A DNA stretch of 59,670 bases, the filler included, from Globobulimina sp. (taxonomy: Eukaryota): NCBI GenBank assembly GCA_003354225.1. It is 12 parts of 12 records of this genome, joined end to end, with 100 filler letters (N's around TTAATTAATTAA, not from the genome) between each part and the next. Parts side by side here need not be neighbours in the genome. Positions count along the whole stretch, not along the records: positions 34,893 to 39,770 come from PIVH01000874.1; 11 more parts are not named here. One strand, given 5' to 3'. Below the pieces are notes generated by a model, which worked only from the letters and a program-made list of their open reading frames with translations, had not been told where the DNA came from and made no database searches. Below are positions 7,339 through 53,754 of the stretch, piece after piece. How positions within the stretch are numbered: the stretch's first letter is position 1; every line of letters begins with the position of its first letter. Position numbers and translations under genes: made by a program.

Positions 7339-7465
7339 AATGCGATATGACTCATAAGAACAAATGATCAAAATGAAAAACCTCGTTTCCGATCCGTTTC
7401 CTAAATGCATTTTGCAGTTTTTTCAAGTCGCAGTGAGCAATTAATTTGGAAACTTTTACGATCGA

Positions 7466-8458
7466 ATGTTCAAAGAACGGTCATCATTCTTTTGGGGAAC
7501 GTGCTTCTTTATCTTTTCCATTGCACTATTATTTAGTTACATATATCGAGAAAACAACATTACATCTTTTTCAAGCGCCTCCTTTTCGATGGTTTTATCA
7601 GAACCCACAACCAATGACAAAACCGTTAAAGCAATCAACCACATATTTTCCAATCTATCTTCTGGATTAGTTGATGATTCAACATATTATCCAATCGATT
7701 ATCAGCAGGGGAAAAATGATCATGTACTCGTTGATGATGCAAACCAATTTTTGTACTGTGCAATCCAAAAAAATGCAGAGACTAAATTCAAATGTTTATT
7801 TTTTAATATTGCTCACAGCATTGGAAAATACAAAGATTGCCGCAAAGTGCACCAAAAAACAAAACGACTTCGTAGTCCGGATGTGGTAACATCTGATATT
7901 TATGAAAATTACACGAAATTGTTGGTAGTACGAGATCCCATTGAAAGATTATTATCGTCATATTTGGATAAATGTGTCCATAAAATCAACAATGATCATT
8001 GCAAAAAATATGGATATCCAAGGGATTTCAAAAAATTTTCATATCAAATAATCGATGAATTTGAAAGAAATGAGAAACTCAATATTGTGGGTTTTCAGGA
8101 CACGGATTGGCATTTCAGACCGCAACATACATTCTGTCACATTTGGAGCACTTTGGATAAATATGATTTTGTGATTCAATATCATTATTCTACGATTGCT
8201 AACGATACATTGTCGTTTTTAAAAGAATTTGGGAAACCTGAATATTTTTATTATCATAAGAATAATAACACGAATATGTTTGGAGGGGATACGCGTCACA
8301 CAACAACTGGGGATAAAGGCGATGATTTGGAAAGCAAAATTGAATTTTATTCAAAATATTTTGATTCTCAAATCATTATCAAATTATTGCATATTTATCA
8401 AAGAGATTATAAGCTTTTTAAAATGACGCCTCCGCATTGGATTCGATATATTAAATAA
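7466..8458 (+). CDS. Golgi-type carbohydrate sulfotransferase (Sulfotransfer_2-like)
   Basis: N-terminal signal anchor; YCAIQKNAET (5'-PSB-like), VRDPIERLLSSY (3'-PB), HFRPQ, YQRDYKLF. Confidence 0.85.
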   Translation: MFKERSSFFWGTCFFIFSIALLFSYIYRENNITSFSSASFSMVLSEPTTNDKTVKAINHIFSNLSSGLVDDSTYYPIDYQQGKNDHVLVDDANQFLYCAIQKNAETKFKCLFFNIAHSIGKYKDCRKVHQKTKRLRSPDVVTSDIYENYTKLLVVRDPIERLLSSYLDKCVHKINNDHCKKYGYPRDFKKFSYQIIDEFERNEKLNIVGFQDTDWHFRPQHTFCHIWSTLDKYDFVIQYHYSTIANDTLSFLKEFGKPEYFYYHKNNNTNMFGGDTRHTTTGDKGDDLESKIEFYSKYFDSQIIIKLLHIYQRDYKLFKMTPPHWIRYIK

Positions 8459-10088: not shown

Positions 10089-13000
10089 TCATATATTGGA
10101 TTTAACTTTTTCGGCATTGATTATTTGTTTGGCTTGTTTGAAATTTATATCTTGTAAATGTTCCTCACTTTTTACGAATTTGAGGAAGTGCGTTGCATTT
10201 TTTGGTTCACATTTGTTTTTCTCACAGAATGCATTCCACGATGGATGCGTATATTGCTCCTTCCGCAATGGCTGATTATCTGTACAGGCCTTGAATTTAA
10301 TTCTATAAACTGGAATGGCCGTATAATCCCTCCAAACAACATAAATTGACGGATTTCTTGTATTATCAACAAATGTGTCGTATTCTGTTTGATTCGGTTT
10401 TAAAGGCACTTTTTTAATTGAACTCGAACCTTTTGTTGAATCGCCAACAATTACTTTACATAATAAAATATATTGATATCCATTTGAATGTGTTGGGCAA
10501 TAACCAGTGACAGTGTAACCTGCATCTCTTGCAAAATACATTCCATTTCCATACGCAGACACTGTACTGTATGATGGATCAAATCCGTTTTGAATTATTA
10601 TGTTTGACACATGATATGATGAACCATACCATACATATTTCTCAATTTCGTCTCTTGTTTTTTTTAATTCATCACATTTACTCAATAAACTTAACTCATA
10701 CAATCGATTTTGTTTTGGTAGCATAACCTCCTCAATGTCAATAATTTGAATATGTGCGGAATCGACTGTTTTATAGAATAATTGTTTTATTTCATCATCC
10801 ATTAATTTATTATCATCATTTTGATGAATTTCAGTATTATATAATTTATCTTTATTTACACCCTCATTTCCTACAACAACATCCTCGATATCTCGAAACC
10901 AATCTGCATATTTCCCAACATTCTCATATTTATGGAATGCATAAATACATTGTGTGGGGTTTTTGCATTTATTTGTTTTTCGTTCCCATTCGCAAGCTAC
11001 AAGAACTGTGTTTGGATTCGCATGAATGCGATTACAATGGGCATTGCATCGAAAACTAAGATGAGAACATAATTTGCCATAATACCAATCTTTTGTATAT
11101 TTCACTGCTTCTGTGTCTTGGAGGTATTTCAGATTAATGTTATCATGTTGTTTATTGTTGTGGAGCATCACAAAAACCATTTATTATTTCCCAAAAACAA
11201 ATAGTTTTAATACTATGAGGTTGCACATGTTTTAATGTGCAGGATGCCCTCTTATCACATCTCGATTTAATATGAACACAGATCTTGCCATCAAACCATT
11301 GTTTTTTCAGTGCATTTAATTTTGCTGCTTTTTGAGGGCTCTCCTTCCGTTCTCTGCATATGTCTGTATTTTCCACTTTGTTGTCATCACACACATTGCC
11401 ATACGGTCGAAGATAACCAATTTGTTTGTCCCTTCGCGGAATTATGCCGCATTTTCTTTTTGATTTATCAGGTTTTGTTAAATCAATAGCTTTACAAACG
11501 CCTTGCTCTGTATTTATTAATTTAAATTGTACCGCATCGCCTTCATTCAATGATTGGTTTTTACATTCTTGTGAAGCATAGTCCACTTTAATATTTTTAT
11601 ATGTATCATCTAAATCAAATTGTATTGTACCATCAGATAAAGATATTTGTGTAATATGTCCACGAAATACAACTATTCGTGAATATTTTGTATTGGTTGC
11701 ATATTCAATGATATTTTTATTTTTGCGTTGATAATATTTGCTTTCTAAGTGTTTCGATTTCTGAACGGAACAATTTGTCCATTCATCAGGACCTTTCATT
11801 GCTTTTTCTCGCCATAAAAATGTAATTGGCAGAAATTTAACGGTTACACATTTCAAATTTGGTACGCCATTTTCGTCCTCATCCCGCTCAATTTTATACG
11901 AAATCATATCACCTTCATTCAAAAAAGATGCATCAAAATCGCATTCATCAAATTCAAACAATACATTATATTTTACGCCATATTGAACATATCCCATTCT
12001 TTTATCTGCATTTAATCGTTTAATTTTGCCTTCAAATCGCTTTGTTTTTTACGTTTTGTATATAGTTATATGTTGTTTATGTTGTGTGTCAAGTGTTTTT
12101 TCTATACATATCCGGATATTAACTCAACAGTGTATCTCTTTAAACGTTTTCCATTCAAATTCAACTCACTTTCCATATTTAAATGATTTGGATTATACAT
12201 ATTTTCATAATCAACACATTGTTGATAAGTGCATTTATTCCATCTTTTAATAATATAATTAAATTCTCGCCATTTATAATCCAAAATTACAAAGGTAACC
12301 TTTGTAGCTTTTGCGTTTTCAACACAATATTCAACTAAACAACTTTTCTCAATATCAATTTCAGCGCATGCATCTAAATCAAATCCAAGCAATGTATTCA
12401 ATTTTGTTGACCAAATATAACCTCTTTGTTGAAATGTATTTACTTGTTGTACTCTGTCAATATATCTGTTTAGTTTGGCTGTTGGAGCTGATGCTGATGC
12501 TGATGCAATTTGTACTGGTTCAAAAGTAGGAGCTTCAGCCTCTGTTTGTGCAGTCGCAATAGGCATGGAAGGTGAAGGTGAATCCGCTATCTCTTTTGAA
12601 ATAATTTTAATATCAACCGCTCGAAAGCCTGCGTATTTTGGAGGAGTACTGTAAAATTTGAGTGAATATTCTAATTTATATCCCGTTCTCAATGGATTAG
12701 AAGCATTTATGTGCTCATTTCTAAAATCTCCATAATAAAATGCAACACCAATTGACTTATTTTGTTGTGGATAATTTGGCTCAACAAAACCCATCGTTTG
12801 TTTTAGAATTTTAATAACTTTACCTTCAAATCTTGTCATGCGTCGCCGTCGAAATGAGTCAAATGAGCCAAGTGCTTCAAAGCCATTTGCTTCAAAGCCA
12901 TTTGGTAACCACTTATTGTGAGCATTACATTGTTGTTCATGTCGTAGAGATTCATAATGACTGCACCATATCCACTGACTTTCAACATCATCATCACCCT

Positions 13001-13661
13001 TATCAGTTACTTGTATTTTGCCTTCAAATACATTCTTTTGAGTTTGTACCTGTTTTATTTGCCATCTGTACGGTAAAATTGTTAATTTTTTCCACGGACC
13101 TTGCAATTATCGTGCTTTGTAATTGTTGTTTCTATTCTGGTTATTATAAGCCCCTCTGTTATAAGCCATGGGTGCTCTCCTCATTCCTCTTACGAATCTT
13201 CCTCGTGCTCTGTTACTATTATACGATTGATATCTATCTCTACCGACACTGCCTATCCCTCTCCCTCGTGATCGGTTATTGTAATTATTATAATGGTGAT
13301 ATCCTCTGAGGCCTCTGTTGCTTTTGAATCCCATATTTCCACGATAGTTATATTGACCTCTGACACCTTCATTGCTTTGATAGTTAGTGTATTGAGTTGG
13401 ATTTTTTGCGTAAGATCTACATTTTTCGACGGTAATAACTTTAATTACTAAATTGTGTCTTCCATGTTCATCAAACGCGTTTTGCAAATCATCGTTTTCT
13501 TCAATTTCGCAATCGTCGGTGTCTCTAAATTGTACAGTATGTGTTTCCGGCAATGTATCATATAATGCTGTTTTCATTTTTAACTCGCCCATAGTTGGTC
13601 GAGTTAATGTGACATGCACATCACCAGCATTTGCATATTTCAATAGCACAGAATAGCTCAT
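10089..13661 (-). CDS. ZAP/PARP12-like multidomain protein: PB1-like, RGG, WWE-like x3, cold-shock/OB x4, CCCH x3-4, PARP catalytic domain (split over 4 ORFs)
   Basis: PARP motifs WYGS, YGNGMYFARDA, ILLCKVIVG, PSIYVV; LPYRWQ and W-x7-W..E..Y WWE-like blocks; RFEGKxK...GY/GF...LNEGD cold-shock-like blocks. Clean intron 12040-12107. Breaks at 13107 (in-frame TAA) and about 11152 (frame change) are either introns or lesions. Confidence 0.8.
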
Positions 13662-13790
13662 TCTGACTATGCGATGACTAGCTCGCTCTGACTTTTTGAA
13701 TTAACGCAAGAGGGCAAACAATTTTCGACTTAGGTTGTTTCACTCTTCAAAACTTTCAACATAAAAAAACAAATCAATACAAAATATCAT

Positions 13791-30258: not shown

Positions 30259-31458
30259 TTATAATTGTTCATAATTAACATCCACTTGACTTAGCATCTT
30301 AGCGTCTTTTTTATAATCACCTCTATGTTTGAAGCAATATACCATCATTCCAATGATACCAAGCGCCACAATCACAGCTAAGACACCAACTGCAATCTCA
30401 AAACCCACCGTCGATTTCTGTGTTTCTCCACTTAACCTCTCAGCAACTATATACATACAAAAATAACACACTGTACTCCTCCGCTAGAATATAATATAAA
30501 AGATACCTTCACTCGTTGTAGCATCGCCAGCCACAGTACTCGACATATCTGAGCTGTCACAGTCCTCTTCCCAGGCTCTGTAGCATTTATTCTTCACCGC
30601 ACACCAACCATACCCTGCACTGGCAATACACCCATAACTGTCCCGATCGCTGCCATCAATGACAATGGTATAATTACAATCCGCTTCCCACGGCACGTAA
30701 CATGTCGCTGTAGACACACAATATATATATCCAGCAGCTATCACACAGCCATGTACGTCTACATCGCCACCAATGGTACACGATTCCTCCCATTTTCTGT
30801 AGCATTTATTCGTTGCTGCACACCATTCATAACTGTTTTTGTTGTTTGTGGGTTAAAAGTAAACATAGGCAGAAGGTATATACCCTGCGGATATTACACA
30901 GCCATAAGAGTCTCGATCGCCACCGATAGCGGCAGAGGCACAGTCTTCTTCCCACCATCGGTAACATGCACTGCTGGCCTCACACCAGGAATAGCCTGCG
31001 TTTGTGTAGCAATTATGTGAGTCCGTTTCGCCTCCAAATGTGCCGGTCGTAGTGAGGGTAAACAGAGGGATATTGCCTTCGGTGAAGGAGCCCAATGTAT
31101 CCGCTAATTGTGTCGGATAGTTCATCGCCACTAATATTGGTAATGAGTCAATGGGTTTGTAGATATATAGTTGTGCATAGTTCGCAGCTGGATCGCATAA
31201 TAATTGTATTGATGCAAAATAATTTATGCCATTTACGGTTTGTTTTTTTGCACTGTCTAATTGATAACGAGTGGTGCAGCCAACGTTGAGGGTTACACCA
31301 CTTTGTTGTAAGGAGGAGCTGATTATATCGTCGAAGGAGGATACATATTCAACTACAGTTTGGAAGTCAGTTGAATTGGATGGAATGTCGGTTAATCCGC
31401 CAATTATTGTCTGTGATATCGCCATTGAAATGGCGAACGTTGATAAAATTAATTTCAT
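30259..31458 (-). CDS. Type I membrane protein: signal peptide, cystatin-like domain, 4 Cys/Trp repeats, TM, YEQL tail (3 exons)
   Basis: IIGG and QTVNGINY (cystatin G and QxVxG); four GGDxDxxGCxxxAGYxWC-x5-CYxxWEExC repeats; intron 30833-30883 restores repeat 2. Confidence 0.75.
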
Positions 31459-31987
31459 CTTTATTTTTGCGATTTTGCGTGGGGATGAGGTAAACTAAAA
31501 ACTTTATGTAGTTTTTTTTTATGTGTATTGATTAAACCATGTCGTCTCGTTCGAAAAAGAAATTGACAGTTGATCGCACGAAAGCTCTTAGATTTATGTC
31601 AGTTACCCTCTTAATCACATCCATGAACCACCAGATTATGTAAACAAAACAACCACAAAAATAAACAGTGCCAAACAACAGTTTTACAAATTAGAAGAAA
31701 CTCCGGAAGAAAAAAGCAATGTACGCATTTTGGAAAGAGATTGGTATCAAAATGCTACACATAATGACTCCTACGCTCAACAAATATGTACCTACGCTGT
31801 CAAACGACATTTAGTTTTATTAGAAAAATACATCAACAAAATGAGCGTTACAAACCCAAATAGAATGCAACAAATATCAACGAGGGACCACATCAAACAA
31901 AGAACACAAATGTGCATAAATAATGTATGTAAAATGTGAATCCTTGCGCTAATCACAAGCATCCAAACAAACAAAAAACAGAAACTA

Positions 31988-34742: not shown

Positions 34743-35156
34743 CGATGCTTTATTCCCAATAATGACCATATAGGGAATTTGGTATTATCATANNNNNNNN
34801 NNNNNNNNNNNNNNNNNNNNNNNNNNNNNNNNNNNNTTAATTAATTAANNNNNNNNNNNNNNNNNNNNNNNNNNNNNNNNNNNNNNNNNNNNTGTTCCGG
34901 ACTCGGAAATAACATAATGTTTTTGTGCAACACTGGCAGCAAAACACAAATTAGCACACATTTTGGATCCCAGAACTTATAAAATTAAATTTGAAAAATA
35001 TAACCAATCACAGACAAAATAAAAATACAACACACATTGGTTCACAACAACAAATCTAAAGCACAAACACACTTACTTCTGTATTGAGGGTATTGAGTGG
35101 GCGCGTATTGAGAGGGAGAGTAAGTAATTTTAAATATTAATAAATATATATTTACT

Positions 35157-37377
35157 TTAATTAATAACAACTGGAAATTCAGCACCATTCTCAGCATTTG
35201 ATTGTGTATCCACTGATTCTCTGCTAACACCACTACTATATACGGGCACAATATCTGGTACAATTTCAATAGACTCTTTTCTGCTGTTTTTATCTTCTGC
35301 CATTGTTGCCATAATAACCGCGGCAATATCCTCCGTTTTCGATTTTCTTTTTCCAAACCAACAACAAAATAAACAAATTGATATCAAACAGACATTGACT
35401 ACACCGACACCGACAGCTAATTTCATCCATGTTATGGTCTCTGCACTCTCTATGTCGCCATCTCCATCCACATCAACTGAGATAACTGGATCATGAGTAA
35501 TTGCGGCAAAACTATTAAAATGCCTTGTTTGCGAAGCAGTCTCTAAATCGTCAGACAATCTTCTTCTTCTTCTTCCTGGTGCTGCAACTAAATCGATTGA
35601 AACTTGAGCATGAATCCATAAATTTGTTCTTATGATAGATGGAGAGACATAGAACGAGAACCGCATCGTTGCGTTGTTATACGGTGTGTATAATGTAACA
35701 TCGCCACCTGCAGTTAAGTCATTTTCTACGCCGGACTGTACAATATGCCATAATGAATCTGCATCAATACTTGCACTTAAACAGCCTCCCGCGCCCAAAT
35801 TCTGATTGGTTACCGACAATGGTTCGTTATCTGGCGACGTGGTACAAATCCAAACCGCATCCAAATTTACATCAAATATACCAAATTCGAAATTGGCGGG
35901 TAAAATAATTGAGAGTTCGACAAAAGCTGTATCTTCCAAGGCATACTGGTCTGTTGCTCCTAATTGATTCGCAAATGTGGCATCAGTATAAAAATCCATG
36001 GTTGCCGCAAATTGCATAACAAATACTTGCGGATCGCAAATCTCATCTAACCACTCCAAACCAACTGTTAATCCGACATCCGATCCATAGTTCGTAATAT
36101 AATCGGCACACAATGCAGCCCCATTTGTGTAATTTACATTTGGATTGCATGTTGTTGTAAAATCTAATGCATAGTCACCTATTTATATAATCAAAATCAA
36201 AAACAAACAAAAAAATATATTGTACTGTAATTTATACAATACAAACCCGTAAAATCCGTTGGTGGACAGCTCACATCCGCTGCTGATACATGCCATAATT
36301 GAGAACATAGACTAGCAGAAGCCACTAAACATCCGCTATTTATCGACACACTGTTTACCTGGAAAATGGTCCCATTCAATGCTGGCACATTCAGCAAAAT
36401 GGGATCAGTCAACATCAAGAAATCCGCAGATTCAGTTAATAAAATAAGTGTAAAATCACCCTCCAAATCGTCTTTAAACACAGAAATAATGGATAATGTG
36501 AATAAATTAATACCAACCGACGAAATAAAATTCACTGTGTTTCTAACAGCCATAACAAACGGTGCTGATAACATTTGAAAGACGCGATAATAACCTGTTT
36601 ATGTCACGGATTAATTTGTTTTATATAATTCAAACACCGAAAATATAGATTGGGAATTTGTACCTGTATCCGTATAATGCGCGAGCGGAGATACCATGTT
36701 AATATAAAATACACCCGACATATTGATCCAATTTGCATCGACTGAAACCGCTGCATATAAAGCATCCCCTCCATAATTGCCACATTCCCGTAATTCTGCC
36801 CAATTAAACTCACCATGATACTTAATAGGAGTGCACTCATTCACTGCATCAATGGACAAACTCCAAAAATCTGACGGCGGAGGATATGCTAAATATGATT
36901 CGTTTGCTAAATGGTTGACTTGGGCCGGAGTATCAGAATAAGTCCATAGCGATGAAAAATCACCAGAAAAATCACCACTTACTCTGTTTTGACAATTTCC
37001 TGCTTCTCGGATATCATCAATGTTTGCATTAAAATCTAGACACAAAACAGATAAAAACAGATGTGCGTAATCCATATATGGACTTACTTACCTTCGAAAT
37101 CCAAAACATATGTGGTGCCATAACCATATGTATGAGCGTCCGCATACGAAGAACCAACATATTCTAAGTCTACATCCAATACTAATCTTAACGAGGTCTG
37201 GTCAACAGCCAATGTGTACGCCATATTAGGTTTAAGGGACTGATCCGACATCAAATCATCCCAATCAATATGCGCAATTTGCCCGCTACTCTCACACGTC
37301 GCATTTCCTGTTAATTGGCCTCTTACTCTGCCGGCGATGCTTAATAATAACAATAATAATACTGTTGATGCGAACAT
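35157..37377 (-). CDS. Multi-exon type I membrane glycoprotein with ZP-C-like region and furin-type site
   Basis: Signal peptide in the 37084-37377 exon; four same-strand ORFs separated by short introns; RRRRRL, then TM helix, then cytoplasmic tail. Confidence 0.7.
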
Positions 37378-37588: not shown

Positions 37589-38092
37589 TCAGTCAATATC
37601 TTCAATATTGCCATCTTCATTTACCTCAACATCGGCATCTGCATCTTCTGTATCCTTTGTTTCATCATCACTTTCTTGTTTTAAATCATTTTGAATTTTG
37701 TTTAAATCGGATGATAATTGTTTTTCTGTCATTCTTTCCCTTTTTTTCGTTAATTTTGCACTTTTTTCTTGCAATTTATGCAATGTTTCCTGATCATATT
37801 CTTCTTCTTCTTTAACTTCAGCTTTATCCATTTCATTTTGTAATTTTTTTGGAGCCATTTCATTTACAGGTTGTGATTTGTCTTCCTTTACAATTTATAT
37901 TTTTCCATTAAAATCATGTTATTCAAAGTCGGGTATATTAACTTTTGATTTCTTACACAAACAATCTCTAAAAAAAGGCCAAAAAAACATTGTCACCATC
38001 GGATACAATATCACCAAAGCCATCAGGAATGCCATTATAGAACCCACCACCATTGCTGGTATACTTGGTTCTTCTAACACTTTTAGTGTCAT
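37589..38092 (-). CDS. Small single-pass membrane protein with acidic tail (2 exons)
   Basis: TM exon joins the acidic exon through a phase-0 GTTAAT...AAAG intron. Confidence 0.55.
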
Positions 38093-38104
38093 TATGATTT
38101 TAAG

Positions 38105-38605
38105 ATGCACGCTAGTGACAAAGCAAAGTTTTTTTATGTGAACATGAAGCTAATTTGGAGAATATTATTTCAATACATTGAAGTGGCGTTGGTTTTGTAC
38201 GCTGCATTTGACTGTGTTATGAGCACAGAATCATTTCTTTCAACTTACTTATTACCGCAATATAAAAACGATATAAACTTAATGACACATCCTGGACTAA
38301 AATTCATGGCACATCTTTATGCGGTGATGTTATTTGTATTTGGATTGGTAGAATTTGTTATATTTTATGCAGCCAATGTCCGATGCATTGTATATTATTT
38401 AATTATGTTATTAATTGGCGATATATTACACTGTGTTATGATATTACAATTCTTTGGAGGTGATATTAAAAATTATCCACTGATTATATTTGGTCATATT
38501 GTCATAACATTAACATTGTTTGTTGGGCGAGTTATATTTGTGTATAATTATTGGAATAGATTTACCATTGGAATGAATTTGCAGCCTAAAGGCAAAAAAT
38601 ACTGA
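38105..38605 (+). CDS. Four-TM membrane protein of unknown function
   Basis: 166 aa, four hydrophobic helices, LLIGDILH motif, C-terminal KGKKY (ER-retrieval-like). Confidence 0.6.
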   Translation: MHASDKAKFFYVNMKLIWRILFQYIEVALVLYAAFDCVMSTESFLSTYLLPQYKNDINLMTHPGLKFMAHLYAVMLFVFGLVEFVIFYAANVRCIVYYLIMLLIGDILHCVMILQFFGGDIKNYPLIIFGHIVITLTLFVGRVIFVYNYWNRFTIGMNLQPKGKKY

Positions 38606-40864: not shown

Positions 40865-42999
40865 TTATAATTCTATAGGTATTGTCATAGGTTTGTCCAA
40901 AATTGCCGGACTTTGTTGTTTTTGCAACTGCATTCCAAGACAAATACCAATAACTAAACATATCAACGCAAAAATTGCAACACCACCCACAAAAAATGAA
41001 ATATCCTTCGCATTAAAACCGTCTGATATCAACTGATAATTCTCTACACCTATAACATGCTCCATATTTGCAGCCCTCCCTTTACCTCCGCCGCCTCCGC
41101 CTCCTCCTTTATCTCCGCCACCTCCACCTCCACCTCCACCGGATGAAGAAGCCACACATGTATCAGCTGGTGGTGCGGGTCTATCACTACCGATCGGCGA
41201 ACAACTATCCGCGCCACAACACCCTCCATATGCCATTACCAAATCATGTAAGTCAGTCAGTAATTCATCAGTCAAATAAAGTAAATCTCCAGCAAGATAA
41301 CTATTTGTTTGCTGAAATGGATCTTTATCCAAATCATAAAATTCAAAAAATATAGGATTCTCCACATCCCATTCTTCATTCAGAAATTCACCATAAAACC
41401 AGTTGACGGACTCATTTTTAATGCGTAACACCCGCCAATTATTATATGCATTATCCAATATCCATAGATCAGGTATCCCGTTTGCTGTTTGTCCAAATGG
41501 ATGCTCGGAATCAATTACCTTTACCCACATAGCGCAACTATTAAAACCTGCACTTTTTGTGCCACCTTTAATTGTATGATATTCAAACATTATGGTTTGC
41601 CTCCATTCTGCAGCACTGCCGTCCAATATTGGTGTGAATGAACGGCCATCATAACTGTCTTCATCATATGCGATATCTGCTAAACGTAAAAATGTTGGTA
41701 AAAAATCTATATTTTGTATCATCGCTTCGGTTGTGCCCTGTTGTATATTGCCACCGCGAACATACAATGGGATCCGTACTGTTTCTTCATATGGCTGATA
41801 TTTTTCGCACGGCAGACGATACTGTCCGATGTGATATCTTATTCAAAAAAAAAGAATTAATATTGATGGTGTACAACATTTGAAATGCATTGCATAGTGC
41901 AAACCCGTGATCACTGGCATAAACCAAATAAGTATTAGACCACATATTATACGCATCGACAGCCTCAACAATAGAGAGTACCATGTCATCGACAGCTAAT
42001 AATGAGCGTAATCTATCTCTATATAACAATAACATAAACTCTTCTGCTTCTGGATTAAGTTTGGGATTCTCAGACAACGGTAAATGATATTGTGAGACAT
42101 CGTCACTATCATAGTTTGGTGTACGTAGCAATTCAACAGAATCAAATCTGTCTTGATGCCCTGTTTATTATTGTTTAAATTATTGAAAGCAAATGAAAGC
42201 ATATATTATTAAAATCATACACGGTGCGGGATCCGCAGGCGAGTGTGGCGCATACGGCGCCACCCAGATAATAAATGGCGGTGTGCTTGGATCGGTTTGT
42301 TGTGCGTTGAGTTGTTGATTGATAAAGTCAAGTGTAGCGTTGCCTAATTGTGCTGTTTGGTAAAAATCAGCAGCATTCAATAACGTTGGCACTTCTTCTT
42401 CTCCTGTAACGTCCTCAACATATTTATTGAAATTGGAGGATGTAAAAAAATCACGATAGTTGCATGAAACATGAAGTCGATCAAATGAACTTAGATCAGG
42501 AGCAGCCGTGCAGAAATCCATATTGTTTGTTAATTTCCCTGTGTTGTTTTGGTTGTATACAGAGTTAATTTGCAATTGGCAGAAACAAATTGGTTTACTT
42601 ATATAAGATATTACCAAATGATCCGGTGATGTAGCCATTGTCATGGAATTTATTGAATAGTGAATCTTCATTTTCGTAGATGTTGTAAGATGCAGAGACA
42701 CCTTGACAGTCCGTTTTGTCTTGTTTCGCATTGTGATATGTCCTTCCGGATACAGTTTCGGTTCGCGATGGACAACAAACGGGGGTATTGGCGAATGCAT
42801 TGGTGAATGTTAAACCTTTATTGGCGACCTCAGATATTACATTGGGCATTGCTTCCATGCTATCTAAGGTGAGATCTTGATCATCTGTTAAAACAAATAT
42901 AATATTTGGCGCTGCGGTTGCATGGTGCATCAACCACTTGGAAAGTAACACTGCGTGCAATATAGCACTACAAGACATGATGCTGAGAATTAAGCGCAC
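40865..42999 (-). CDS. Sulfatase (N-acetylglucosamine-6-sulfatase-like), multi-exon, with C-terminal TM anchor
   Basis: PNIIFVLTDDQD, CCPSR (FGly motif), APYAPH, RLRSLLAVDD, YASDHG, NIDFLPT, EFYDLDKDPFQ. Confidence 0.92.
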
Positions 43000-43032: not shown

Positions 43033-44292
43033 TTAGTTATCGATTAACGTTCTTGCTAAATATAGCAAAGCTGCCAATTGTTCTTCACCAGCAGGTACTA
43101 TGGGCGGTTGCCCAGAACCAATGGACCTCCCTTCAAACGTAAATGCTATGACTTGTTGATTACTCACAGCACAAACATAATCTTCCATAGCTCCTGACGC
43201 TTCGTACCATGTTCCTGATTGAATTGATTCATAATTCTGACCATGAACAGCATCCGCCTCAACTTGCATATTTGCTCCCAACTCGCTATATTGATTATAA
43301 TAGGGCTGCGGCAATGTATTGATTGTATAACCCCATGGCCACAAAATATATGGACCGGTGGTATGCATATCCACTGCAGCTTTAATATTATGCACAGGGT
43401 CAAAAATAAACTGCGAAACCGCAGCAGTTTCAGGTTCACTAAACGGTGCAGTACCGCAGTAATTATTGCTTGAAGGGTTGTGTGAGGTTCCTGTTGTGCC
43501 CCATATTCCGTCTGGGCCATAATTTCTATTTAAGTCTACACCAAATGAGCCGTCCCCATTATCCCTTCTATTTTTTCTCCAATTTCTCTCTGAAGTTCCA
43601 ATCCATGTAAAAATATAGCCATCAATGTTCACAGTTGGCACTATGAATATATTTATGTTATCCAATAAATACGTTATCGCATCATCGTTGTCAGAATATC
43701 CTTCACATATCGCATTTAATATAAATGTGGTGGCGGCATTTGCTAACCATTCATTGCTATGAACCGATGCTTGAATATAAAAACCAGGCTTATTTGAGTC
43801 GAATTCTTCATCGACAGAGAGCGTAATAATTGGAATATCTCTGTCTTGAATGGTTTGTCCCAAAATACGTTTTGATGTAATATTTGGGAATCGAACTAAT
43901 AATAAATCTAGAAATAATTCATATTCCCACCATGGCCTAAATTCATCAAAAAAAATATTCATTTGACTTTCAACCGGCTTCCATTTTGGTGTATTATTGA
44001 TCCGATCTCTTTCTTTGCGTATAACTGCATCATAGTCAGGTATTATTATCTCAAATGACAAGATTTTTGTCTCGTTTTGAATGTCAATTAATCTCTTTTC
44101 ATCAATTACTATCTCAATTGTTATTACAGTGTTTTTTGTTTTGTTGCGTACGCCAAATAACTCTTCTTCTAAAAATATTGAAGATACATGTTCTTGATGT
44201 ATTGTCACTAATGCGCCTACTTGTAATCCTTCAACTAATGTAGAAGCTAAAATGGATGCAATAAGTGTTAAAATCAAAAAATACGCCATCAA
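43033..44292 (-). CDS. Secreted M14 zinc carboxypeptidase with prodomain
   Basis: HSNEW (HxxE), WRKNR, GVDLNRNY, FSEPET, DMHT, FTFEGR. Confidence 0.93.
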   Translation of the reverse strand: MMAYFLILTLIASILASTLVEGLQVGALVTIHQEHVSSIFLEEELFGVRNKTKNTVITIEIVIDEKRLIDIQNETKILSFEIIIPDYDAVIRKERDRINNTPKWKPVESQMNIFFDEFRPWWEYELFLDLLLVRFPNITSKRILGQTIQDRDIPIITLSVDEEFDSNKPGFYIQASVHSNEWLANAATTFILNAICEGYSDNDDAITYLLDNINIFIVPTVNIDGYIFTWIGTSERNWRKNRRDNGDGSFGVDLNRNYGPDGIWGTTGTSHNPSSNNYCGTAPFSEPETAAVSQFIFDPVHNIKAAVDMHTTGPYILWPWGYTINTLPQPYYNQYSELGANMQVEADAVHGQNYESIQSGTWYEASGAMEDYVCAVSNQQVIAFTFEGRSIGSGQPPIVPAGEEQLAALLYLARTLIDN

Positions 44293-44847
44293 CGTTCTTA
44301 TTGTCTGGCCGGACTGAACTGCAGAATACTACACAAGTTTTCGTACTATCAATAATAAATCCAACCAAACGCAAGACCGTCAATAATAAATTCGTACTAT
44401 CAATAATAAAATGTATACAACTTATTGACCAGGGGGGGGGGGTTATCTTTTGGAATATCTTCAAAACTTTAAGAAATAAGAACCACTCAAAAAAAGAAAG
44501 AAAGAAATAATTACATAATAGTAAAAAAGAAAGAAAGAAAAAAAGTATATATATATTATAAAATGTATTAGTAAACAAAAATTATAATGATAATGCATGA
44601 CTTTGTGTTTTAACATTCCATCCCCAGAGAAATTTTGCAACTGCTTCTAATGTTTGTGTTGCATTCATGTTGTTGTTATGGATCAGACTCAAAATATCTG
44701 TTACAGCTTTAGAAAAGTTCCAATTTACCCAATCTAACAACCTATTTNNNNNNNNNNNNNNNNNNNNNNNNNNNNNNNNNNNNNNNNNNNNTTAATTAAT
44801 TAANNNNNNNNNNNNNNNNNNNNNNNNNNNNNNNNNNNNNNNNNNNN

Positions 44848-48529: not shown

Positions 48530-49415
48530 ATGTTTACTCCACAACTCTGCATGGCAGTGGCAGTGTTGATGACATACGTACACATCTCATTTGCACTCAA
48601 TGATCCTGTTAAGTATCGTATATATCGCTACATTGCAAATCAGAAATACCAATATAAAAAATACACTGTAGACGTTATCAAATTACTTCATTGGTGAATT
48701 TGACACATTAAAACAAGTAATTTCAGTGCCGTATCCACCAGGAATTTGCGTGAAAGAAGGACTAGGCGGCGTATACGTTGAATTTGAATGCAGCTCAGAT
48801 TATAACGCAGTAACCAAAAAAACATATACTTCTGCCAATGATGATTGTAGTGGTTCGCCAACGAATACAAAGACCTATACACTTGACTTAAACTCAGCTC
48901 AGGGCGACTTATATGATTTTAATTGTGCAGGAAAAGAAAATGCCATGGCATATGTTTCACATCTCGGCAGTTGTGGCAACATCATTGGTGTTACTTGGCT
49001 TGCTACGGACATTTGTTATAAATATAATAATTTATCAAACATTACTGGCAATTTAGGGAACTATCCGGATGCTCCATCGCATGAATATTATCAACTCAGT
49101 CAACGAAATACTTGTCAAGGATGTAACGTCACTATGGAGACATATGTAGGGGATCAATGTCAAAATGCTGATGTCCCACTAAGTAGATTTGAAGCAGACC
49201 CGGGATGTGGACTGTATTTCAGACAAGCAGGGTTTGAGGTGTTTGCAGATGCAATCGCGTGTATTCATGATGGAGAGGATGCATTTACAGTCAATGGGAC
49301 ATGCGATTATCAACCAGCTTATACAACATCTGAGGAAGGCGATGATGCAATAAAAGTGAATTATATGCCTGTGATAGTTATATCATTGATAATTTTGCTA
49401 CTCACAAATTGTTAA
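48530..49415 (+). CDS. Cys-rich cell-surface protein, probably GPI-anchored (2 or more exons)
   Basis: Signal peptide exon MFTPQLCMAVAVL; many Cys; hydrophobic C-terminus with no cytoplasmic tail. Confidence 0.6.
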
Positions 49416-50182: not shown

Positions 50183-50250
50183 TCACCCGACCATGTTTGT
50201 CTTTGCTTTAAGAAACGTTTATTGAATCTGGTTATTCGCATTGTCATATC

Positions 50251-53200
50251 ATGGGTAGAAGTGATGGATTATCAACAAAAGTTACATATGGATCACAAAT
50301 AAGGACAAAACAATGCTTTACGTGTGGTAGAGAAAATAATGAAACTGTAAATATTAACGGTGCTAATATATCAGTCAAATTGCATTCAATTACAGCTGAA
50401 AAAGCTGCATATTTATGGTTTAAAAAAAGGGTTTCGTTACACCCAAAAAGAGATAAGATTTGTAGTTTATGTACTGACAAATCATTGGAACAACTGATAA
50501 TTATACCGGATAATATATGGGAGCGCAACACCACTAATTCCTCCGTCGCAGATGATAATCAAAATCGAATAATTCAAAATTTGATTGGTTTATTTTGTAG
50601 TGCATGGTATCGTTTATTATTAAAAGAAAGCTTTGAAATCTTATTAAATAAATCAAGGCGCAAATTGGATACAGACAATGGGAATATTACCAATGAAGAA
50701 TGTGAAATATTAACAAATGTTGATTTAGGTAAAATAGATTCTTTAGCAACATTTGCATTGGAAAACATTCAAAAACATTGTGATTTAAGTTATGATGAAA
50801 TTGTTAAAATAATTGATATTAATAAAAAAAATGATAAAAAGTTATTTGAATTTGTTGTAAATAATGATGATATTAAACAAGAAGAAAAACAATTGGATGT
50901 TGCTGAGAGTGAGGAAAGTGAAGAAGCGAAAATGGACATTTTGGAAGACAGTGATTGCATTGACTTGGATTTAAATGTTGATATATCAAACAATACCAAT
51001 AACAACATTTTACATTCAAATCCCCGAAATCATAACAGAAATTCCAACTGGAATTTCAACCCAAATCCCAACATAAACTCCGACCCAAATCCCAACATAA
51101 ACTCCCACACAAATCCCAACATAAATTCCCACCGAAATCACAACATAAACTCCCACCCAAATCCCAACATAAACTCCGACAGAAATCCCAACATAAACTC
51201 CCGCCCAAATCCCAACATAAACTCCGACCGAAATTCCGACATAAATTCCCACGCAAATCCCAACATAAATACGCAGCTAAATCACAACTTTAATATTCAC
51301 CCAAACTCCAACATAAATAACCTCCTAAATCCAAACTTAAATAGCCACCCAAATCACAATTATCGCAGAAATTCCAACACGAATTCCAACATAAATAACC
51401 CTCAGAATCCCAACATAAATACCCGCCCAAATCCCAACATAAATAACCATCGGAATTCCGACATAAATTCCAACGCAAATCCCAACTTAAATAACAACAC
51501 AAATCCCATCTTAAATACTCATGAAAATCTCAATATAAATACTCTCCCAAATCTCAACATAAATTTCAACGAAAATCATAACCCAAATCTCAACATAAAT
51601 TCCAACTCAAATGCCAACATAAATAGCCATATAAATATCAACATAGATAACTATCCAAATATCAACATAAATCCCAACACAAATTCTGACCCAAATCCCA
51701 ACTTAAATAACAGCCCAATTACGAACAGCAGCAATTTAAATGCTGAAGATGATGACAAAGATGAACAAAAAGAAACTGCCATTGACGCTTATGCTAAAAA
51801 AAGATTAAAAAAAAATCTATTTTTTTTTTTAGTCAAAAGCAAAATCAGAACGGCGAATGAAATATTAGGTGTTTATCATGGATATTCAGAAAAGGCGATA
51901 CGAAGACATTTTCACAGAGCACGTGTTATATTGTGGACATTTGTAACTCCATATTGGTTAGGTATCAATCATTTAACACGAGAGGCTTTATTAGCAAAAC
52001 AATCAGATTGGGCAAATTTAATTAATATTTTAACAGGAAAAAATTATATATTATTTGGTGATGGTATGAAAATAAGACAACATAGATTTACAGGAAATTT
52101 TGATCACAACTATAACAGTTATGATCCAGGTAAACATTATAACACTCGTGGTTTTATGGGTTTATGCACAACCACTGGATATTGCATTGATTTAATTGGT
52201 GGTTTGTGTACAAATGGCTCGCATGGTGATAGTCATGTTTGGAATTGGATAATACGTACTAATCATAATAATATTAATTCAAAATTAAATATAAATGAGG
52301 ATTTATTAGGTTTTGACAGAGGTTGGAAATTTATGATGGCACATTCACCGTATTGGATGTTATTGCCAACTCTGTCAAAAAAAAAACCAGTTGACGCATT
52401 TTTAATTAATTGCTCACGACTACATACAAATAATCGATGGATAAATGAGGCATTATATGCCCAATGGAAAAATTCTTGGGATGTATTCCGCTCAGTAATA
52501 TTACATTGTCATCGAATGTATATAAATTCATGGTTAAAAAATATTGCTGCTGTACATAATTTCATTAAACCTGATGGATTTGTAAATGATCATGATGAAA
52601 ATGATAAATTTATGAATTATTTCAAATATAAAATTAAAACTGAATTTTATCAAAATCATATTCAAGATATTGTTATTGAATTAGAATCAATGCATAATAT
52701 GATATACAGACAACCAACTGATGATGAAATATGGCACGAGGTAGATGCATGGGAATTACCACGAATTGTTCCAGGTTTTAGTCATTTTCGACACTTAGAA
52801 AATGAAGAAATAAAAATATATTCAGGTGGTCAGTATGGATATGAACAAAGGATTGGATATATTGCACATAATAATGCTGGCAATATCAGATTATATGTCC
52901 ATGGTGCACAGATAAAATATCTGCAATGGTTAGAGTTAAATGATATATTAGATCGAAAAATGCGTGTAGCTGAGCGAAATGATGATACCGAAGCCATACA
53001 ACAATTATTAGAAGAACGTGATAGAATCGATGAGGAGTCTGCATTGACCTGGAAATGGAAATATATTGTGGTCAAAGTGGCAGGCATTAACTCAAGGCAT
53101 ACCCGCAGCAACAATCCAAAAACCATCTATTGCAATTACTGGGCTTTTGATAATACTGGTTATTATAAAGAACAACTTGCAGACCAGTTACAAGTAACTC

Positions 53201-53754
53201 ATCATATATTAAACAACAATATCAACAATAATTCCAACAATAATTCCGACACTAATTCCGACACTAATTCCGACACTATTTCCAACAACCAACGACATTC
53301 ACACAACAGCAACTCGAATAATAATAATTTAGTGGATGATATACAATCTGATGTTGATATTAATATGAATGATGATGTTGTATTGGATTTACCTGTGGAT
53401 GAATTTGAATTTGATGAAAATAGCATTGAATATCAAAAATTGGTTGAAATACAGGAGTTTCAACTCAGGAAATTATTCACAAAAACTAATATTAATGCTT
53501 TGGAATATAATGATAATATTATTCCGACACGAATTAAATTTATTAAAAGCTATTGCGATCCTTGTTCTCATGGAGCAAGGACTATTGGATGCTGTGCACA
53601 TCGAACTATGTCACTTGAATTAATACGTGATGCTTTACTTGGACATGATCAGTTTACTCCGCATAAAATATCCAAAAAACAAGGTGATATTTTAATAAAT
53701 ATAGAAAAAAAACATCAGTTCACCAAAACACGACCAGGTCGTTGGTGGCAATAA
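50251..53754 (+). CDS. DDE transposase (DDE_Tnp_4-like) with N-terminal Cys motifs, Asn/Pro repeat insert and C-terminal SWIM-like finger
   Basis: FGDG, GKHYN, GDSH, FDRGW, SRLHTNNRWINE core; C-terminal YCDPCSHGARTIGCCAH. Confidence 0.82.
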   Translation: MGRSDGLSTKVTYGSQIRTKQCFTCGRENNETVNINGANISVKLHSITAEKAAYLWFKKRVSLHPKRDKICSLCTDKSLEQLIIIPDNIWERNTTNSSVADDNQNRIIQNLIGLFCSAWYRLLLKESFEILLNKSRRKLDTDNGNITNEECEILTNVDLGKIDSLATFALENIQKHCDLSYDEIVKIIDINKKNDKKLFEFVVNNDDIKQEEKQLDVAESEESEEAKMDILEDSDCIDLDLNVDISNNTNNNILHSNPRNHNRNSNWNFNPNPNINSDPNPNINSHTNPNINSHRNHNINSHPNPNINSDRNPNINSRPNPNINSDRNSDINSHANPNINTQLNHNFNIHPNSNINNLLNPNLNSHPNHNYRRNSNTNSNINNPQNPNINTRPNPNINNHRNSDINSNANPNLNNNTNPILNTHENLNINTLPNLNINFNENHNPNLNINSNSNANINSHININIDNYPNININPNTNSDPNPNLNNSPITNSSNLNAEDDDKDEQKETAIDAYAKKRLKKNLFFFLVKSKIRTANEILGVYHGYSEKAIRRHFHRARVILWTFVTPYWLGINHLTREALLAKQSDWANLINILTGKNYILFGDGMKIRQHRFTGNFDHNYNSYDPGKHYNTRGFMGLCTTTGYCIDLIGGLCTNGSHGDSHVWNWIIRTNHNNINSKLNINEDLLGFDRGWKFMMAHSPYWMLLPTLSKKKPVDAFLINCSRLHTNNRWINEALYAQWKNSWDVFRSVILHCHRMYINSWLKNIAAVHNFIKPDGFVNDHDENDKFMNYFKYKIKTEFYQNHIQDIVIELESMHNMIYRQPTDDEIWHEVDAWELPRIVPGFSHFRHLENEEIKIYSGGQYGYEQRIGYIAHNNAGNIRLYVHGAQIKYLQWLELNDILDRKMRVAERNDDTEAIQQLLEERDRIDEESALTWKWKYIVVKVAGINSRHTRSNNPKTIYCNYWAFDNTGYYKEQLADQLQVTHHILNNNINNNSNNNSDTNSDTNSDTISNNQRHSHNSNSNNNNLVDDIQSDVDINMNDDVVLDLPVDEFEFDENSIEYQKLVEIQEFQLRKLFTKTNINALEYNDNIIPTRIKFIKSYCDPCSHGARTIGCCAHRTMSLELIRDALLGHDQFTPHKISKKQGDILINIEKKHQFTKTRPGRWWQ
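51061..51710 (+). repeat. Degenerate 24-bp coding minisatellite (NPNINSxx)
   Basis: Repeated AATCCCAACATAAACTCC-like units in frame within the transposase. Confidence 0.9.

Follow-up and report, generated by a model that had tools for sequence, protein, structure and literature searches.

Whether a zona pellucida (ZP)-type membrane protein controlled by cleavage occurs outside animals is the question raised by one gene of the foraminifer Globobulimina sp. The window, i.e., the whole stretch of DNA that was analysed, comprises 59,670 nucleotides (nt, filler included) joined from 12 parts of 12 records of assembly GCA_003354225.1, and positions are counted along it. The gene lies at 35157..37377 from ATG to stop, and a reading-frame model gives four exons with 2028 nt of coding sequence for 675 amino acids (aa); all its features described below are on the minus strand. 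An earlier note on this DNA had interpreted it as a ZP-module-like membrane protein. Our data partly support that interpretation: the structure searches returned the ZP-C fold, whereas the Pfam score threshold was not reached and the four canonical cysteines were not all present. Modelling strongly supports a ZP-C fold for the region of aa 387-537 (35574..36026), which we call the ZP-C core on the basis of the model, the structure searches and column counts in a family alignment. For the gene as a whole, we lean slightly toward the explanation that its product is the precursor of a type I membrane glycoprotein from a large foraminiferal family, with a membrane-proximal ectodomain that would be a divergent but genuine ZP-C domain under the control of cleavage.

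The structure of aa 337-581 was predicted with AlphaFold2, without templates, from an alignment of 74 sequences (alignment A1). The model reached a predicted local distance difference test (pLDDT) value of 89.5 and a predicted template modelling (pTM) score of 0.75, and it showed an immunoglobulin (Ig)-like fold of the ZP-C type, with a helix (aa 355-366) and a strand (aa 369-374) ahead of the ZP-C domain. Among the Foldseek matches listed against the Protein Data Bank (PDB), ranks 1-17 were ZP-C or ZP-module entries, from betaglycan at 1.5e-6 down to about 1e-3, and the list included ZP2, endoglin, ZPD, uromodulin, ZP3/ZP1 and GP2. The best non-ZP fold appeared at rank 18 (1.9e-3), and nanobodies followed from 3e-3. 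VIA-align, which is independent of Foldseek, was run against all 48,161 PDB representatives and placed ZP-C structures in all of the top seven positions: ZP2 (12.2), betaglycan (11.5), ZPD (11.1), uromodulin (11.0 and 9.5), ZP1/ZP3 (9.5) and ZP3 (8.8). The best other fold was the Ig-V domain of myelin P0, at 8.4. Some of the alignments to filament forms reached model residues 36-40. The earlier note had called for structure prediction followed by Foldseek, and had named a fold that matches generic Ig domains no worse than ZP-C as the outcome that would count against it; both analyses were run, ZP-C entries came out on top and that outcome did not arise.

The family alignment of 74 members was used for column counts. 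Two cysteines of the core, C447 (35844-35846) and C468 (35781-35783), were present in 74/74 members each and probably correspond to C5 and C6 of the ZP-C domain. An FXF motif, F509-S-F511 (35652-35660), was nearly as constant (F509 in 70/74, F511 in 73/74), followed by D474 (67/73), R519 (68/74) and Q527 (64/74). By sequence alignment, this motif would be the counterpart of RFSF in betaglycan ZP-C, and FXF is described as highly conserved in the ef loop of ZP-C in the available part of PMC7737619. The core further contains a segment resembling betaA and the internal hydrophobic patch (IHP), VMQFAATMDFY, and the strand betaF, NLWIHAQVSIDLVA (aa 521-534, 35583-35624). At the positions of the betaF cysteines of betaglycan, alanine or another non-cysteine residue is found here (LYVHAQ vs. 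LFLHCELTLC), so that the canonical set of four ZP-C cysteines is reduced to two; the earlier note had likewise recorded that some ZP cysteines were missing. PF00100 (ZP-C) was the Pfam family matched most often by family members (16/74 at E<=0.1, best 4.3e-4). Three of these matches began at the identical family column, at position 4-5 of the Pfam model, and one of them extended to position 123 of 133.

Behind betaF, the protein carries a polybasic stretch, RRRRR (aa 538-542, 35559..35573), as a candidate convertase site in the loop before the next strand. That strand, TASQTRHFNSFAAIT (aa 549-563, 35496..35540), resembles the external hydrophobic patch (EHP) of ZP proteins and forms an integral strand of the ZP-C sandwich in the model. 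It is followed by an acidic spacer (aa 564-585, 35430-35495), a transmembrane (TM) helix (aa 588-610, 35355..35423; Kyte-Doolittle hydropathy up to 2.55) and a poorly conserved cytoplasmic tail of 65 aa (aa 611-675, 35160..35354). The TM helix and tail together were 29% identical to the family member P0131. The order given in the earlier note, i.e., RRRRR, a hydrophobic patch and a TM helix, was thus recovered, and all of it is located in exon 4. In the model, betaF led into a loop of lower confidence that holds RRRRR (pLDDT 66, model block 201-210), and the loop was followed by a confident strand (model residues 213-227, pLDDT 92-94) that closed the sandwich. Alignments to precursor ZP-C structures (ZP2, betaglycan and the uromodulin precursor) ran through the EHP-like strand to model residue 227-231. 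Those to filament forms mostly ended before or just past the basic loop (model residues 197-217), and few reached the strand.

The basic site was conserved in the family, with R540 in 72/74, R541 in 71/71 and R539 in 57/72 members. The strand behind it carried a conserved (N)Q-x-R-H-F motif (His in 56/72), and a TM-like segment was found about 70 residues past betaF in 57 of the 62 members that were long enough. A cleavage consensus, an EHP strand (betaG) and a membrane anchor are therefore all present as predicted features, and the FXF motif, the two invariant cysteines and the order of betaF, basic site, EHP-like strand and TM segment were kept across the 74 relatives. In uromodulin and ZP3, according to the available part of PMC7737619, the EHP (betaG) lies inside a cleavable C-terminal propeptide that blocks polymerisation. 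The same text describes assembly as triggered by protease-dependent release of the propeptide from a membrane-anchored precursor, with anchoring being required. The arrangement of betaF, site, strand and TM helix found here is the one described for uromodulin and ZP3.

The N-terminal half of the protein is less easily placed. A hydrophobic N-terminus, MFASTVLLLLLLSIAGRVRGQ (aa 1-21, 37315..37377; Kyte-Doolittle 1.7), represents a signal peptide with a predicted cleavage position, and it is followed by a conserved region with ten conserved cysteines (aa 22-386, 36027..37314), whose span contains the three introns. We divided this region provisionally into D1 (aa 22-190), D2 (aa 191-300) and D3 (aa 301-386). 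The whole ectodomain comprises about 515 aa, is rich in cysteine and has six N-glycosylation sequons. When aa 20-340 and 20-190 of P0131 were compared by language-model features, the nearest clusters were ZP-N and CUT_N (cuticlin-N), with a score of <=0.80, which serves as a lead only. No ZP-N signal was seen among the 25 Pfam families most common in the members, and no PDB sequence matched. Four cysteines are conserved in D1, with a spacing that we take to be unlike the canonical ZP-N spacing. Comparison of the D1, D2, D3 and ZP-C sub-profiles with hhalign gave no internal duplication (best probability 10.6%).

Several observations weigh against placing the protein with ZP-C. Pfam searches of the four exon translations returned TM-driven noise, and PF00100 was absent from the window protein. 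The best member shown (P0019) scored 20.1 bits, below the Pfam gathering threshold of 24.6 bits, and 0/23 further members matched PF00100 at E<=0.01. A search of PDB sequences with the family profile listed betaglycan ZP-C as the second and third matches, in an alignment that covered the beginning of the domain, RFSF and betaF, at a non-significant E of 0.45; phmmer searches of the PDB with exons 2, 3 and 4, P0001 and P0117 yielded no significant match. None of the sequence methods thus reached significance. Whereas the canonical ZP-C domain has four cysteines (C5-C8, of eight in the whole module), the core has C447 and C468, and C7 and C8 are absent. The strict furin consensus R-x-K/R-R was present in only 23/74 members. 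If D1 contains a ZP-N domain, about 200 residues lie between this domain and ZP-C. In a complete ZP module, the short interdomain linker can replace the EHP, and for polymerising ZP proteins its length is reported as 22-26 residues in the available part of PMC7737619. Proteins with atypical linkers, i.e., endoglin and betaglycan, are non-polymerising according to the same text.

The ZP-C fold is itself Ig-like, and this makes convergence conceivable: a lineage-specific ectodomain of foraminifera may contain an unrelated Ig-like sandwich that has come to resemble ZP-C, with a basic site and a TM segment of the kind generic to shed membrane proteins. We consider this improbable, as three structure searches placed ZP-C entries at all the top ranks, with other Ig folds 3-4 Z units lower. 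The sub-threshold Pfam matches to ZP-C in 16/74 members also shared one register, and the FXF motif, the C...GC pair and the order of betaF, site, betaG and TM segment all coincided. Homology to ZP-C is therefore the more probable explanation of the fold. Two defining features were tested and are missing, a score at the Pfam threshold and the full set of four cysteines. We therefore class the gene as working like a ZP-C precursor, and not as a certified member of the Pfam ZP-C family or of the canonical ZP module.

According to the explanation that we favour, the precursor would reach the cell surface, where a foraminiferal kexin/furin-type convertase may cleave it at RRRRR (aa 538-542). The EHP-like strand, which lies beyond RRRRR, and the TM propeptide would remain in the membrane, and the ectodomain of about 515 aa would be released with its ZP-C groove emptied. 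Released ectodomains could then assemble with other copies or with paralogues into an extracellular coat, for which the organic lining, the chamber template and the adhesive pseudopodial surface are candidate sites. In longer paralogues, the same ectodomain would display lectin, TSP1, EGF, SRCR or propeller domains. In a separate part of the window, an M14 zinc carboxypeptidase is encoded at 43033-44328 on the minus strand (Peptidase_M14, 4.7e-63), with an N-terminal hydrophobic signal. M14-class enzymes trim the basic residues that remain after convertase cleavage, and any role of this kind here would be speculative.

A different outcome, possible if on the unlikely side, is that the ZP-C protein acts at the cell surface as a non-polymerising receptor or adhesin, like endoglin or betaglycan. 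It would bind ligands, prey, substrate or matrix at the pseudopodia, and the basic site would serve for shedding or be unused. This is difficult to reconcile with a near-invariant basic site positioned exactly between betaF and the EHP-like strand, together with a conserved FXF motif; both are hallmarks of assembly control, and a receptor would have little reason to retain them. The large size of the family (128 clusters at 50% identity) is expected of matrix components and is weak evidence against a receptor as well.

The exon assembly proposed in the earlier note was carried out and gave the four-exon, 675-aa gene. Exon 1 (37092..37377) encodes aa 1-95 plus one nt, with the signal peptide and the start of D1. 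Exon 2 (36664..37035) encodes the remainder of D1, including the conserved C110, C163 and C180, and the start of D2. Exon 3 (36247..36594) contains a conserved, cysteine-free stretch, D2, and the first half of the cysteine-rich D3 (C308, C316 and C329), and it was 72% identical to P0131. Exon 4, including the stop codon (35157..36178), encodes the end of D3, ZP-C, the cleavage site, the EHP-like strand, the TM helix and the tail. The strings quoted in the earlier note (MDFYTDATF, YALEDTAFVEL, LDAVWICT, GGC, MRFSF, LWIHAQVSI and RRRRR) were all found in one minus-strand frame at 35157-36182, in which RRRRR is followed by FNSFAAIT and then by the hydrophobic LAVGVGVVNVCLISICLFCCWF. The introns are of the GT..AG type and measure 56, 69 and 68 nt in 5' to 3' order along the gene.

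The model was collinear with the full-length homologues P0001 and P0002, and the alignment was ungapped at the exon junctions. When contigs of public runs were aligned to the region, a 1643-nt contig from run X7 lacked exactly the three modelled introns, and the 69-nt intron was also absent in contigs of runs X1 and X2; contigs of run X3 were unspliced and retained the introns. None of the listed runs is recorded as RNA, and the type of X1, X2 and X7 is guessed or unknown, so the intron-free contigs represent the joined form and not formally RNA; they would most simply be cDNA. The gene model stands above chance because of the end-to-end alignment of homologues and the contigs that skip the introns.

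Exon 4 differed from the contig of a related organism (run X2) at 29 listed positions, of which 20 were synonymous and nine nonsynonymous. Six of the nine amino-acid differences lie at aa 546-578 (35430-35546), in the stretch of the propeptide that surrounds and follows the EHP-like strand; another is at aa 531 in betaF, and the remaining ZP-C core has just two. Codon usage of the gene correlated with that of seven other genes of the window at r=0.79, compared to 0.33-0.76 for those genes among themselves. Judged from codon usage, the short introns, the intron-free contigs and the substitutions in exon 4, the gene looks native to the foraminiferal genome. The window has 968 N positions in total, and one run of N's, at about 34760-34900, lies some 250-400 nt downstream of the stop codon; the 3' untranslated region and the next gene are therefore incomplete on that side.

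The family was collected by exhaustive phmmer searching with aa 337-581 as the query, counting cluster representatives at 50% identity and E<=1e-3. This yielded 128 representatives; 83 of them passed a cut-off of E<=1e-10, and E<=1e-30 left 10. The best match (P0003), a EukProt record named Globobulimina turgida, was 99% identical to the window protein. Thirty clusters were looked up. Eighteen carried organism names and all of these were Foraminifera, from the five genera Globobulimina, Nonionella, Bolivina, Ammonia and Elphidium, which agrees with the placement outside animals made in the earlier note; the other 12 were marine metagenome or transcriptome records. One match, P0095, was a bacterial cadherin/RTX protein and was dropped from the alignments. 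Searches with the family profile and with the N-terminal half (20 matches) returned nothing outside the same family, and none of the matches bore an NCBI or UniRef name. A search of metagenome loci with the single protein returned no relative, and no paralogue of the gene was found within the window.

Conservation extended over the entire ectodomain (about 515 residues) and the C-terminal propeptide region, a unit in which twelve cysteines were conserved. Longer paralogues carried C-type lectin, TSP1, ricin B, EGF, SRCR, laminin G, Kelch, WSC and F5/8C domains at the N-terminus, as well as RCC1-like propellers and PT-rich linkers N-terminal to the conserved unit. In a FastTree phylogeny of 70 rows, the window protein clustered with P0131 and P0005 (support 98), and this group was nested in a 10-row clade that also contained Nonionella sequences. 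Paralogues of Nonionella and Bolivina were interleaved throughout the tree; the family therefore diversified before these genera split and is old within foraminifera. The data bear on the source of the gene. The family uses domains that are common in animals (C-type lectin, TSP1, EGF and SRCR), and apart from this family the ZP-C fold is known from animals, as would be expected of an animal contaminant or of a recent transfer from an animal. Such a source is extremely improbable given the age of the family, the 99% identity to the Globobulimina turgida record, the complete absence of animal proteins from the 128 phmmer matches, and the codon usage (r=0.79) and short introns that are typical of the window.

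A role in the sexual phase of foraminifera, as a gamete-surface recognition or coat protein analogous to the egg-coat ZP proteins, is very improbable. Members were present in five foraminiferal EukProt data sets, which are presumably bulk transcriptomes of feeding cells, and the many paralogues per species with lectin, EGF and TSP1 heads resemble general matrix or adhesion proteins. What speaks for such a role is analogy only: animal ZP-N and ZP-C proteins act in gamete recognition, and a ZP-N fold has been proposed for Sag1p of yeast, as stated in the available part of PMC3567151.

Other genes were identified in the window. A carbohydrate sulfotransferase is encoded at 7445-8458 on the plus strand (Sulfotransfer_2, 3.6e-27), and the C-terminal part of a sulfatase, followed by a glycine-rich stretch and a TM segment, at 40865-41842 on the minus strand (SGSH_C, 3.5e-14). 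Foraminiferal organic linings contain sulfated polysaccharides. The upstream neighbour of the ZP-C gene, on the opposite (plus) strand at 38087-38605, encodes a DUF7704 multi-pass membrane protein (2.5e-9). Two cysteine-containing open frames had no Pfam match: one at 30853-31494 (minus strand) with an N-terminal hydrophobic stretch that is possibly a signal peptide, and one at 48672-49415 (plus strand) with a hydrophobic tail, possibly a glycosylphosphatidylinositol (GPI) signal or a TM segment. A gene with a PARP catalytic domain (10089-11180, minus strand; 3.7e-16) belongs to a run of long minus-strand open frames at 11152-13700, one of which overlaps it and the rest of which are adjacent. 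An open frame of 1180 aa at 50212-53754 (plus strand) includes an extended array of 24-nt tandem repeats (51034-51708) that code for NPNINS-like units. It gave a weak match to DDE_Tnp_4 (7.3e-4, below the cut-off) and may be a domesticated or decaying transposase. Scans of the window for tRNA genes and Rfam families gave no matches, and a scan for bacterial promoters and terminators stayed at the background level.

The canonical ZP module is regarded as a metazoan synapomorphy, absent from fungi and plants, and the choanoflagellate Salpingoeca rosetta is credited with incomplete ZP-like domains only, according to the available part of a 2026 review (PMC13361971). The family described here does not have this metazoan or holozoan distribution. 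A search of full-text literature, with most subscription journals outside its scope, turned up no account of ZP-type domains in Foraminifera, in Rhizaria or in any other protist that is not a holozoan. In PMC5741210, 'zona pellucida' occurred solely within the reference list. The main text of a study of the Amphistegina test proteome (373 proteins; PMC11648905) contained none of the terms zona, uromodulin, lectin, thrombospondin, EGF and adhesion. Its two supplements, whose tables as shown give names and annotation without sequences, likewise lacked these terms, 'adhesion' not being searched there.

An expanded rhizarian family in which the ZP-C domain is combined with every element of the assembly-control device, from the FXF motif and the basic site to the EHP-like strand and the membrane tether, would move the origin or spread of this device far beyond animals. 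A further step, which we regard as doubtful, is that a complete ZP-type polymerisation system activated by cleavage exists in Foraminifera. In this system, D1 would be a divergent ZP-N domain, D2-D3 an expanded linker, and the family of more than 128 clusters would build filaments of the organic lining or chamber template under the calcite test. If this were true, the ZP module would not be an invention of animals or holozoans, and it would date to early eukaryotes or have been exchanged anciently between distant lineages. Little is known about the protein scaffold of the organic lining and the primary organic sheet, which template the calcite tests that serve as climate archives, and the family offers concrete, testable candidates for it.

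The nearest known systems are the polymerising ZP-module precursors of animals, i.e., uromodulin, GP2, ZP1-4 and ZPD (PDB 4wrn, 6tqk, 5bup, 3nk3, 8rki, 28yj and 8xc5). Compared to these, the foraminiferal protein, which is known from its sequence and a model, has two of the four core ZP-C cysteines, occurs in a rhizarian protist, and has about 365 family-specific residues with ten cysteines in place of ZP-N and a linker of 22-26 aa. Its predicted anchor is a TM helix, as in ZP1-4, and not GPI. The co-receptors endoglin and betaglycan (PDB 5hzv, 3qw9, 4ajv and 8dc0) have a ZP module and do not polymerise; by contrast, the foraminiferal basic site is near-invariant, and a protist gives no context of a TGF-beta system. 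We know of no conserved cleavage-controlled EHP device in endoglin or betaglycan. Generic Ig V-set domains, such as nanobodies and myelin P0, were 3-4 Z units below ZP-C as matches, and they lack an FXF motif, a cleavage site in front of the final strand and any sub-threshold signal in Pfam. The ZP-like domains of the choanoflagellate Salpingoeca rosetta, compared here through their description in the available part of PMC13361971, are likewise non-animal, with incomplete canonical features and without evidence of polymerisation. Salpingoeca rosetta is a holozoan of the sister group of animals, whereas the present family is found in Rhizaria, within the group of stramenopiles, alveolates and Rhizaria (SAR), and a holozoan origin alone is therefore insufficient as an explanation.

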